Below, piece by piece: positions 1 through 9,211 of a stretch of 9,211 nucleotides of DNA. How positions within the stretch are numbered: the first letter of the stretch is position 1; each line of letters opens with the position of its first letter. Origin of the DNA: a virus (taxonomy: Duplodnaviria; Heunggongvirae; Uroviricota; Caudoviricetes); the IMG/VR virus record IMGVR_UViG_2609460356_000005, positions 1-9,211 of that record, one strand, 5' to 3'. Under the pieces are notes generated by a model that had not been told where the DNA came from, searched no databases, and was given only the letters and a program-made list of their open reading frames with translations. The position numbers were made by a program, and so were the translations under genes.

Positions 1-894
1 ATGGGGCTATTAGCAGACAAAACAAAATGGGTTCTTTTTTTGGCTTCCAGCAGTGAGCCGGAAGATCGGCATGTTTCTGATCTGGCCTTTGGGATTTACT
101 GCTTAGAAAATCGTGGAATTAATCCTGCTGATATTTTTATTTATATAGATGGAAACAACAGAGGAAATATACAAAAATTAATCTCAGTTGGCACTAACCA
201 TCAATATAATGTAAAAAGAAGCAGCGAATTTTTTTCGGATTGCGACGATAATACCCATGATAATATAGTTATATTTATAACGGGTCATGGAAGTATGCAT
301 GGATTGGACGCCCTCCCACCAATACCGCCCTATAGGTTACTTAATCGTATAAAAACAACGCCAGATTTAGATAGAGCGATAGTATATATGGGGCAGTGTT
401 ATGCTGGAATTTTCAATTACTTAGCAGCCGGAAGGCAGCGAAGGTCTGACGGAAAGATAGATCCTGAGGCGATTTTCATGGGGGCAACCAATCTCCATGA
501 AAGCATTAGCTCTTCTACCACAGAAAATATAAACGGCAACGATTACACTTGGGTCGCCAATCTTTTTTTGTTAAATACATTCAAGTGGATATCCAATCCT
601 TTCGATGTTGATGGCGATGGAAAAAACACGGTAATCGACTCATACAAATATGCCGGAACATCTTCAAATGTAATGAACATGAGTATAAAGATGAACTCCT
701 TTGTTCAATCAGTAATGCTTCACTCCCAATGGAGCACTGCAAAAACGGATTATGAATTGGATGATCAGAATCAAACAAAACTATTAATATACAGAGCATA
801 TGAGCAACAATATTTATCTGCTCTGAATATAAATTTTGTCCATCAAGAATGCTGGATTTTAAACTCCGTTCCGGCTCAGCAAGTCGAATATTAA
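1..894 (+). CDS. Clan CD cysteine peptidase, legumain (C13)/caspase-like, 297 aa, with C-terminal region carrying a calcium-loop-like DxDxDG motif
   Basis: ORF 1-894 (+). Ordered His-then-Cys dyad in the sequence context typical of clan CD peptidases: hydrophobic strand KWVLFLASSS, then IVIFITGHGS (His96, nt 286-288) and AIVYMGQCYAG (Cys133, nt 397-399). DVDGDGKNTVID (aa 202-213, nt 604-639) resembles a dockerin/EF-hand-type Ca-binding loop. AT-rich, unlike the adjacent phage genes. The window starts exactly on the ATG, so the true N-terminus cannot be verified. Confidence 0.5.
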   Translation: MGLLADKTKWVLFLASSSEPEDRHVSDLAFGIYCLENRGINPADIFIYIDGNNRGNIQKLISVGTNHQYNVKRSSEFFSDCDDNTHDNIVIFITGHGSMHGLDALPPIPPYRLLNRIKTTPDLDRAIVYMGQCYAGIFNYLAAGRQRRSDGKIDPEAIFMGATNLHESISSSTTENINGNDYTWVANLFLLNTFKWISNPFDVDGDGKNTVIDSYKYAGTSSNVMNMSIKMNSFVQSVMLHSQWSTAKTDYELDDQNQTKLLIYRAYEQQYLSALNINFVHQECWILNSVPAQQVEY

Positions 895-7523: not shown

Positions 7524-8369
7524 TTAGTCGTAATACCCTTCCCACCAGCTTGAAGTATCTGCATGGAATGCCCCTTCATCACACTCTAAACTTTCAGGGG
7601 CATACACTGGACTTCTCACCTCGCAGGTAAATGGGAATGTCTCACTACCTACAGCACCAATATCATTTCGCAAATCGGAATTAGATCCCCATTGCAACCC
7701 GACACCTACAGAACCAATAACAGAGAAAACTATTTCAGTATCATTTATTTCTACTATTTTAACATCATCAACATACACTTCATCAACCGAACTGTGTGTC
7801 GATAAAATATCAATTGATGTTACAGTTTCAGTTATCGAACTATGAATCGCGGCCTCACTAACGGCTTCATATAGCTTATTAATTATCTCCTTATGACACT
7901 CATCAAGCTTGGTGAAAAGAGCGCTGATACAGCCTTCAACCTCTCCGACCATTTGGAGGCCAGCATCATCATTAATTGGGAAAATATTTTCGCTGATGTG
8001 AGTAAATTTATTTAATGAATTGAATGCGTCACGTAACCTCGGAAAAACCCCAGCAACATTTACATCAAGCTCTTCCCTGACATATTCATCACTTAACCCA
8101 CCCTGGATTATATATTTGTAAGAGTCTTTTCTTGAGACCTGCTCTCTTTCATTCAAGCCAGGGAACCAATCACATGACTGAACATTTTTATCAGGTGCCA
8201 TGCGTTTTATGACGTGTAAAAATAGTTCTCTAAGTGCATAGGCATAATTACTGAAGCGAAGTTGATTATTTACATCTAAAAGATTGTAGATCGCAGAGTC
8301 AAACAATTGCCGTTCAAACTCTCCTTCCAGATGTTTATTGATCATCTGTAAATTATCGTTAGTTCGCAT
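7524..8369 (-). CDS. Hypothetical protein, 281 aa, AT-rich cargo gene (second gene of two-gene operon)
   Basis: ORF with ATG at 8367-8369 preceded by a GAGGAAG Shine-Dalgarno; 23-bp gap from the upstream small ORF. No family recognised. Contains an R-x4-H motif (RELFLH, aa 47-52) that could be, but need not be, a HEPN-type signature. AT-rich composition contrasts with the capsid module. Confidence 0.6.
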   Translation of the reverse strand: MRTNDNLQMINKHLEGEFERQLFDSAIYNLLDVNNQLRFSNYAYALRELFLHVIKRMAPDKNVQSCDWFPGLNEREQVSRKDSYKYIIQGGLSDEYVREELDVNVAGVFPRLRDAFNSLNKFTHISENIFPINDDAGLQMVGEVEGCISALFTKLDECHKEIINKLYEAVSEAAIHSSITETVTSIDILSTHSSVDEVYVDDVKIVEINDTEIVFSVIGSVGVGLQWGSNSDLRNDIGAVGSETFPFTCEVRSPVYAPESLECDEGAFHADTSSWWEGYYD

Positions 8370-8392
8370 TAACTCTTCCTCTGTAGACTTTA

Positions 8393-8737
8393 TTATCTTT
8401 CGACATTAAGCCAGTGAGACACAGCGTTTCCGCTGGATATTCTCGCATCATAAATGATTGACCTCAAATCTCCATTTGAACGTGCTGGATTGGACAGTTG
8501 TGCAGCAACATCATTGAGAAGTTCAATGTAAGAACGCAGTTCATCTGGTAAGTCAGCATATGGTGCATCCATAGCGTCAATGTAATCCTGATTTTCCCTT
8601 CGCTCAGCCAGAACAAAAGCCCTTAAAGCCAGATAGTCTGTCAGCGTTACTCCAGTTTTCTCATTCAGTTCTTCGATTGCACTATGCAGAAATTGGATAC
8701 CCTGAAACTTGTCTTTATGATTACCTAAAATTTCCAT
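8393..8737 (-). CDS. Hypothetical small protein, 114 aa (first gene of two-gene operon)
   Basis: ORF track starts at a TTG (8749). The ATG at 8735-8737 (MEILGNHKDKF...) with GAGG 6 nt upstream is preferred. Acidic, helical-looking protein with no recognised family. Stop TAA at 8393-8395. Confidence 0.55.
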   Translation of the reverse strand: MEILGNHKDKFQGIQFLHSAIEELNEKTGVTLTDYLALRAFVLAERRENQDYIDAMDAPYADLPDELRSYIELLNDVAAQLSNPARSNGDLRSIIYDARISSGNAVSHWLNVER

Positions 8738-8757
8738 CTGTAGCCTCAAAAAATAGA

Positions 8758-8785
8758 AATATACGTTTAAGTGTTCACCTGTTCA
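8758..8785 (-). promoter_or_regulatory. Putative sigma70-type promoter of the two-gene operon
   Basis: Minus strand: -35-like TGAACA (plus 8780-8785), 16-nt spacer, -10-like TATATT (plus 8758-8763), about 20 nt upstream of the GAGG/ATG of the small ORF. The -35 overlaps the tandem AGGTGAAC repeats. Prediction by eye only. Confidence 0.3.
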
Positions 8786-8878
8786 CCTTTGCATTTTTCC
8801 TATTTAAATTCATTGGGTTACAGGGTGAAGACTATAATTTTAAGTATTCACTAGTATTCACCCTAACCCTTCACCTTT
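8773..8878. repeat. Cluster of short direct and inverted GTTCACC-type repeats in the operon upstream region
   Basis: Exact tandem GTTCACCT x2 (8773-8780, 8781-8788). Exact AGTATTCAC x2 with 10-bp periodicity (8843-8851, 8853-8861). TTCACCTTT at 8782-8790 and 8870-8878. Inverted copy GGGTGAAG at 8823-8830. Confidence 0.55.
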
Positions 8879-8880
8879 TA

Positions 8881-9211
8881 GGTGATGCTGCCAACTTACT
8901 GATTTAGTGTATGATGGTGTTTTTGAGGTGCTCCAGTGGCTTCTGTTTCTATCAGCTGTCCCTCCTGTTCAGCTACTGACGGGGTGGTGCGTAATGGCAA
9001 AAGCACCGCCGGACATCAGCGCTATCTCTGCTCTCACTGCCGTAAAACATGGCAACTGCAGTTCACTTACACCGCTTCTCAACCCGGTACGCACCAGAAA
9101 ATCATTGATATGGCCATGAATGGCGTTGGATGCCGGGCAACAGCCCGCATTATGGGCGTTGGCCTCAACACGATTTTACGTCACTTAAAAAACTCAGGCC
9201 GCAGTCGGTAA
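8881..9211 (+). mobile_element. IS1 insertion sequence, left end and insA (element continues beyond window)
   Basis: Sequence from 8881 (GGTGATGCTGCCAACTTACTGATTTAGTGTATGATGGTG...) matches the IS1 left terminal inverted repeat and leader as remembered. It is followed by the InsA reading frame. A full IS1 is about 768 bp, so it would extend to about 9648. Confidence 0.9.
8936..9211 (+). CDS. insA: IS1 InsA (transposition regulator / N-terminal part of InsAB' transposase)
   Basis: 91-aa [94 protein letters not shown], recognised as IS1 InsA (zinc-finger CPSC...CSHC plus helix-turn-helix). Stop TAA at 9209-9211. Confidence 0.9.

Follow-up and report, generated by a model that had tools for sequence, protein, structure and literature searches.

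A P4-type iteron array bordering an IS1 insertion as the probable distal module of a replication origin in a capsid-forming PICI

What is the function of a dense cluster of short repeats that lies directly upstream of a two-gene cargo unit in a mobile island, and which protein might recognise it? This question is raised by the 9,211-nt stretch of DNA analysed here (hereafter the window), in which a first-pass annotation had described tandem copies of GTTCACCT (8773-8780 and 8781-8788), copies of AGTATTCAC spaced by 10 nt (8843-8851 and 8853-8861), further copies of TTCACCTTT (8782-8790 and 8870-8878) and one inverted GGGTGAAG (8823-8830), and had proposed either an operator or an iteron array for a sequence-specific DNA-binding protein. 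All of these copies are present, and we find that they resolve into six sites, each of them the 8-mer TGTTCACC or a near variant, within positions 8772-8875 (Table 1). As detailed below, the second of the two proposals is the one that agrees with our results: both the iteron sequence and the layout are those of phage P4, and in intact relatives the array adjoins a P4-alpha-like gene whose product carries an origin-binding winged-helix domain. From sequence comparison, we consider it likely that the array is the distal six-iteron module (module B) of a P4-type replication origin in a phage-inducible chromosomal island (PICI) of the capsid-forming type (cf-PICI).

The sites in the window are the same words as the type 1 repeats annotated in P4. 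The P4 GenBank record lists 16 'ori type 1 repeats', distributed over ori and crr (the 'cis required region for replication'), and on extraction these comprise 11 copies of TGTTCACC, with TGTTCACA, TATTCACC and TCTTCACC accounting for the others. A weight matrix built from these 16 P4 repeats only recovers five sites in the window, four of which fall within 8772-8862, and the two remaining sites of the array are one-base variants of the P4 type 1 word. The two abutting iterons nearest to the cargo gene are unchanged in seven aligned loci and are the counterpart of the terminal pair found in P4 ori and in each P4 crr unit, while the three iterons at the other end of the array have start-to-start spacings of 10 and 13 nt.

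Table 1. Positions of the repeat array and of neighbouring features in the window
Feature	Position	Strand	Basis or remark
Iterons 1 and 2, TGTTCACC TGTTCACC, abutting	8772-8779, 8780-8787	+	Pair nearest the cargo gene
Spacer of 36 nt between iteron sets; candidate melting region	8788..8823	.	Counterpart by alignment: spacer in the 120-nt crr unit of P4
Single inverted iteron TCTTCACC	8824..8831	-	8-mer reading
Three iterons, TATTCACT (8845-8852), TATTCACC (8855-8862) and CCTTCACC (8868-8875)	8845..8875	+	
Module B (six iterons and 36-nt spacer), surviving part of the intergenic region between replication gene and cargo	8738..8880	-	Identical to L004-L009
IS1 left end, terminal repeat GGTGATGCTGCC...; insA ORF 8936-9211	8881..9211	+	Colinearity break relative to L004; Pfam
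114-aa cargo gene, directly downstream of the array, ATG at 8737	8393..8737	-	
281-aa cargo gene, predicted Argonaute-associated-type nuclease	7524..8369	-	pP_pnuc_1 and pP_pnuc_2
Sigma-70-like match, possible cargo operon promoter: TGAACA (8785-8780), 16 nt, TATATT (8763-8758)	8758..8785	-	9/12 consensus

Only part of the region survives in the window, and its complete form can be seen in close relatives. An exact look-up of the 281-aa protein retrieved six intact-island loci (L004-L009), in which the stop codon of a gene annotated as 'DNA primase family protein' and the start codon (ATG) of the 114-aa gene are 271 nt apart. Of this intergenic region, the final 143 nt are identical to the segment that the window retains, and the first 128 nt, which are absent from the window, carry six further sites. 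The 12 sites are arranged as two mirror-image six-site modules, with the map, in gene orientation, >0 >10 <53 >74 >85 >93 for module A, followed by <124 <137 <147 >168 <212 <220 for module B (> and < denote site orientation and the numbers are starts relative to the first site). Each module consists of two sites, an AT-rich spacer of 34-36 nt, one inverted site and then three sites, and the whole of module A aligns with module B once the latter is reverse-complemented (z=10.5; the score was reached in 0/2000 shuffles). Two features of PICI origins are thereby recovered, namely iteron sets on either side of a low-GC spacer, in both modules (GC of about 0.30-0.35 over the spacers, measured in 40-nt windows in the intact locus L004), and a first iteron placed 9-31 nt past the stop codon of the replication gene, as observed in 10 loci.

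The agreement with P4 extends from the words to the arrangement of the sites, with six type 1 iterons per unit in the same order and orientation and at near-identical spacing to those of P4 ori. The site map of P4 ori (>0 >10 <53 >75 >86 >96) can be laid directly onto that of module A, and module B taken alone (<0 <13 <23 >44 <88 <96) matches the other strand of P4 ori (<0 <10 <21 >43 <86 <96). At the sequence level, module A and P4 ori can be aligned end to end (z=16; 0/2000 shuffles reach the score). The island spacer sequence resembles that of the P4 crr unit, and module B aligned with the second P4 crr unit over the spacer and the terminal iteron pair with a local score of 59 (mean of the shuffles, 16.6; z=15.9), which again was reached in 0/2000 shuffles. 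In P4, crr is directly 3' of the alpha gene, just as the island array is directly 3' of the replication gene. The large-scale organisation differs, however: ori and crr of P4 are 4.5 kb apart, whereas the two island modules abut in inverted orientation within 271 nt; P4 crr consists of two 120-nt direct-repeat units of six sites each, whereas the island has one crr-like unit; and the 'type 2' repeats of P4 have no counterpart in the island origin. The element itself is a PICI with its own capsid genes and not a P4-like satellite, as it lacks sid, psu and delta.

The gene that adjoins the array in the intact relatives encodes a 589-aa protein (7592-9361 on the plus strand of L004, 13612-15381 on the minus strand of L001) which is homologous to the helicase and the winged-helix origin-binding domain of P4 alpha. 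WP_000786269 is an example of the replication protein from an intact relative. The two proteins share 51% identity over 449 residues (P4 alpha residues 327-775; E=4e-163), a stretch that spans the D5_N region, the superfamily-3 helicase and the C-terminus of P4 alpha. Residues 479-575 of the island protein match PDB 1KA8, the origin-binding domain of P4 alpha (E=5e-26), and a comparison of six proteins found this domain to be about 50% identical to that of P4 in the island proteins of five loci, with 45 invariant positions. According to a secondary summary (PMC4234260), P4 alpha binds the origin repeats through its winged-helix domain. The amino-terminal parts of the proteins are different: Pfam detects a zinc ribbon and a Toprim primase part in P4 alpha and neither of them in the island proteins, so priming may differ from that of P4. 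The first ~133 residues of the 589-aa protein have no Pfam match and fall only into phrog_2850, a family of unassigned function.

Both the array and its position next to the replication gene are widely conserved. A sensitive DNA search identified homologues of the 271-nt region in 667/5426 complete E. coli genomes (12%), most of them with 70-73% identity over about 240 nt. In 10/10 loci inspected the array directly follows the stop codon of the alpha-like gene, and the site map is common to all ten, apart from a few in which a site has been lost or gained, while the genes downstream vary. The array is followed by the 114-aa gene and the nuclease gene in L001 and L004, by an unrelated small gene in L002, by a small gene and SSB in L011, L013 and L017, by SSB, ProQ and PerC in L012 and L018, which are classical PICIs without capsid genes, by a convergent HEPN gene in L014, and by ~340 nt of non-coding DNA and then the capsid gene in L015. 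In an alignment of seven loci, 85% of iteron columns are invariant compared with 42% of spacer columns (Fisher p=9e-12, a value that overstates independence as the loci are related). The first-pass annotation had named a lack of conservation in homologous loci, together with the absence of protein binding or regulatory effect, as the outcome that would speak against its reading, and as regards conservation we find the opposite, with the sites kept across loci that are only 70% identical. For the window itself, the linkage of the array to a replication gene is inferred from the relatives that share the identical 281-aa protein and the identical 143-nt segment. L012 and L018, which are O145:H28 and O157:H7 chromosomes, carry the same alpha-like gene and origin layout, and hence this replication module is common to classical and capsid-forming PICIs. 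A decayed copy of the island is found in L008 (7958-12055; Logan ERR4165458), in which the origin array and both cargo genes are intact, the integrase side and the capsid-to-portal region are deleted, and the replication gene, cut to 467 aa, abuts acrF.

In the window the array ends at 8880 because IS1 starts at the next nucleotide, which is also where colinearity with the intact locus L004 stops (8880/8881). The left 331 nt of IS1 are present, and Pfam recognises Zn_ribbon_InsA and HTH_Tnp_IS1 in the insA product (contig L010). The element has inserted into the 23-nt linker that joins modules A and B, and 5 nt separate it from the first iteron of the latter. The exact look-up of the 281-aa protein also returned L010 (GCA_000700585.1, JNNC01000089.1), a contig with the same sequence as the window that breaks off within IS1; the exact junction of module B and IS1 had no match in the genome collection searched, probably because this collection holds one genome per species. 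By analogy with the intact relatives, the partner module A and the replication gene would lie beyond IS1, outside the window. At least an IS1 would thus part the capsid and cargo half of the island, together with module B, from the replication gene and module A, and the island in this strain is probably crippled. Since P4 tolerates 4.5 kb between ori and crr, this separation need not abolish replication. IS1 would also interrupt read-through transcription from the upstream promoters of the island. In L016 (NZ_CP095155.1, 1369-2500), an independent IS903B lies in module A, directly after the second iteron, and is flanked by a 9-bp duplication, TTCACCCCG. The two insertions suggest that this type of origin is a recurrent IS target.

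The remainder of the window encodes a capsid module. Reading down the minus strand from 8737, the 114-aa protein and the 281-aa nuclease are followed by an HK97-type capsid protein, a prohead protease and a portal, and then by a head completion protein, a head-tail connector, an HNH endonuclease and the small and large terminase subunits (Pfam); tail genes are absent from the window. In complete E. coli genomes the whole element is an island of 15-16 kb between fis and yhdJ (L001, L004), in the order integrase, AlpA-type regulator, small genes and 'DNA primase family protein', after which come the genes that the window contains. The island thus combines an integrase, AlpA, a replication gene, capsid, protease, portal, connectors, HNH, TerS and TerL with the absence of tail genes, which is the gene set of the cf-PICIs (10.1101/2022.09.08.507074). 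At the fis-proximal end, a 297-aa ORF (window 1-894, plus strand) lies on the strand opposite to all other island genes; it has no match in Pfam, PADLOC or PHROGs, and in relatives it is followed by a 100-aa ORF. L015 (LR881103.1, deposited as 'Escherichia phage vB_KppS-Ant' and described as an 'induced prophage') is a packaged cf-PICI of 16.5 kb with the same origin; it has no cargo gene after the origin and, in the place that the 297-aa ORF occupies in the window, encodes after terL a 765-aa protein annotated as tape measure.

The two cargo genes lie between origin and capsid gene, in a slot whose content varies (7524-8737, minus strand). The 281-aa protein matches pP_pnuc_1 and pP_pnuc_2 ('pPIWI-associating nuclease') in Pfam (E=1e-36 and 5e-32) and Aga_Nuclease in PADLOC (E=1.2e-84). 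No Argonaute or PIWI gene is found anywhere in the island. The pair may act on its own as an anti-phage module. For the 114-aa protein, neither Pfam nor PADLOC gives a match, and its single PHROG family, phrog_7232, is of unassigned function. Its family is very rare, with eight representatives among 1.8 billion, and two homology searches returned six and eight relatives, too few for a useful alignment; a single-sequence AlphaFold model reached a mean pLDDT of 48. A structured RNA at the array was considered as well and was rejected, as a scan of 8300-9211 gave no Rfam match.

Several other explanations of the repeats have to be weighed. A core of only 5-8 nt in an AT-rich region invites the suspicion that a short word has clustered by chance in intergenic DNA, but the counts leave practically no room for this reading, which we regard as already refuted. 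Of the 19 copies of the core TTCAC/GTGAA in the whole window, six fall in 8770-8880, and not one of 1000 dinucleotide-preserving shuffles of the whole window placed six cores in a 110-nt stretch (the maximum was four), nor did any of 5000 shuffles of the local 141 nt yield six; the conservation of the sites between loci of 70% identity argues in the same direction. When the motif is sought elsewhere, as the first-pass annotation had recommended, strict matches outside the array are at chance level, and 9 or 10 of the 10-14 matches per locus fall inside it. It is also highly implausible that the repeats form a packaging site (cos or pac) recognised by the island's small terminase. Repeated sites are a common target of small terminase subunits, and the island has an HNH endonuclease, TerS and TerL of its own; however, the packaged genome LR881103 has its ends 22 nt upstream of terS, at a distance of ~5 kb from the array, and the same array is present in classical PICIs that have no terminase.

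The remaining alternatives concern the start of the cargo operon, where the tandem iterons contain the first hexamer of the sigma-70-like match, which is oriented toward the 114-aa gene and is followed by GAGG and the ATG. The overlap between the tandem sites and a promoter element that had been noted from the outset is therefore real as far as this hexamer is concerned, while the promoter itself amounts to a 9/12 consensus match. If the array were an operator, the 114-aa protein or another regulator would bind the repeats and control its own promoter, and the two proximal sites, overlapping a hexamer correctly placed upstream of the gene, with no intrinsic terminator in the region to intervene, are what one would expect to see. 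The distribution of the array makes this very unlikely, however, and autoregulation by the product of the first gene, as had been suggested, is at odds with it: the array is found without the 114-aa gene in L002, L011-L015, L017 and L018 with its layout kept, including where the next gene is convergent (L014) or where no gene is adjacent (L015), and it occurs in 12% of E. coli genomes, compared with a protein family of eight representatives. Moreover, the motif is the site of a different and identified protein family, that of P4 alpha. That the 114-aa protein shows no recognisable DNA-binding domain counts for little, as no usable structural model of it was obtained. A combination of functions deserves more consideration, in which module B serves as part of the origin while its two proximal iterons double as a cargo promoter that is occluded by the replication protein, such that cargo expression would be tied to the replication state of the island. 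The orientation of the match and the GAGG and ATG behind it are consistent with such dual use, cargo that is active while the island is uninduced must have a promoter of its own, and in the window IS1 blocks read-through from upstream. Yet the promoter is a consensus match only, comparable matches in the intact locus region are little more frequent than in shuffled sequence (three in L004 9300-9700 versus 1.7 expected; the window has six in 8300-9000 versus 1.8 expected), and the TATATT hexamer is lost in the more distant, 70%-identical islands, and we therefore view this dual use as possible but rather unlikely.

Taking the array, as we favour, to be the distal module of a P4-type origin, we propose that after induction the replication protein would bind the sites via its winged-helix domain, and that one hexamer would assemble on each six-site module, a number of sites that would suit a hexameric helicase. 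The inverted pair of modules would then load two helicases pointing away from each other, the AT-rich spacers would melt first, and the island would replicate. The model for these steps is P4 alpha acting at ori together with the cis-required crr.

How does such an origin compare with those of other satellites? Fillol-Salom et al. (2018; PMC6092414) place the origins of Gram-negative PICIs directly 3' of the replication gene, describe an AT-rich region between two sets of iterons, and report that a segment of EcCICFT073 comprising gene and origin drives plasmid replication. The island follows this scheme, both in the position of the origin and its flanking iterons and in its PICI gene order. 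The same study describes PICI Pri-Rep alleles as different in sequence from P4 alpha; the island allele, in contrast, shows 51% identity to P4 alpha over 449 residues and is paired with the iteron of P4. According to the same study, the SaPI origins of Staphylococcus aureus likewise have iterons 3' of rep that flank an AT-rich region; their iteron sequence and initiator are unrelated to those of the island, and the host clade is different. The supplements of PMC6092414 contain no iteron sequences, and a full-text search of the literature with the iteron word returned unrelated primer sequences only.

Two parts of this picture are already known, namely that PICI origins lie 3' of the replication gene and the P4 iteron, which has been familiar for decades. 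In the literature searched we did not find a widespread PICI replication allele that is close to P4 alpha and has P4-type iterons, nor the fusion of ori and crr into a palindromic unit. One may go further and read all of the observations jointly: P4 ori and crr would have been fused into a compact, self-contained and palindromic site for loading a double hexamer, the cargo-proximal iterons would be a promoter that is shut by the replication protein, and the IS hits would be a route to domestication. We consider it improbable that this joint reading holds in full. If it did, the expression of variable and possibly anti-phage cargo would be coupled to the replication state of the island, and insertions such as IS1 here and IS903B in L016 would let hosts domesticate islands by disabling replication while the cargo is kept.

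Our analysis leaves the general picture of satellite origin function unchanged, and at the same time it assigns a concrete probable function to an unannotated repeat region that roughly one complete E. coli genome in eight carries. It further indicates that a widespread group of PICIs, classical as well as capsid-forming, uses the origin-recognition module of P4, although P4-like and PICI satellites had been described as unrelated in their replication proteins. We would predict from this that the replication proteins of P4-like and PICI satellites sharing a cell recognise each other's origins, and cross-activation or incompatibility between these satellites could follow.
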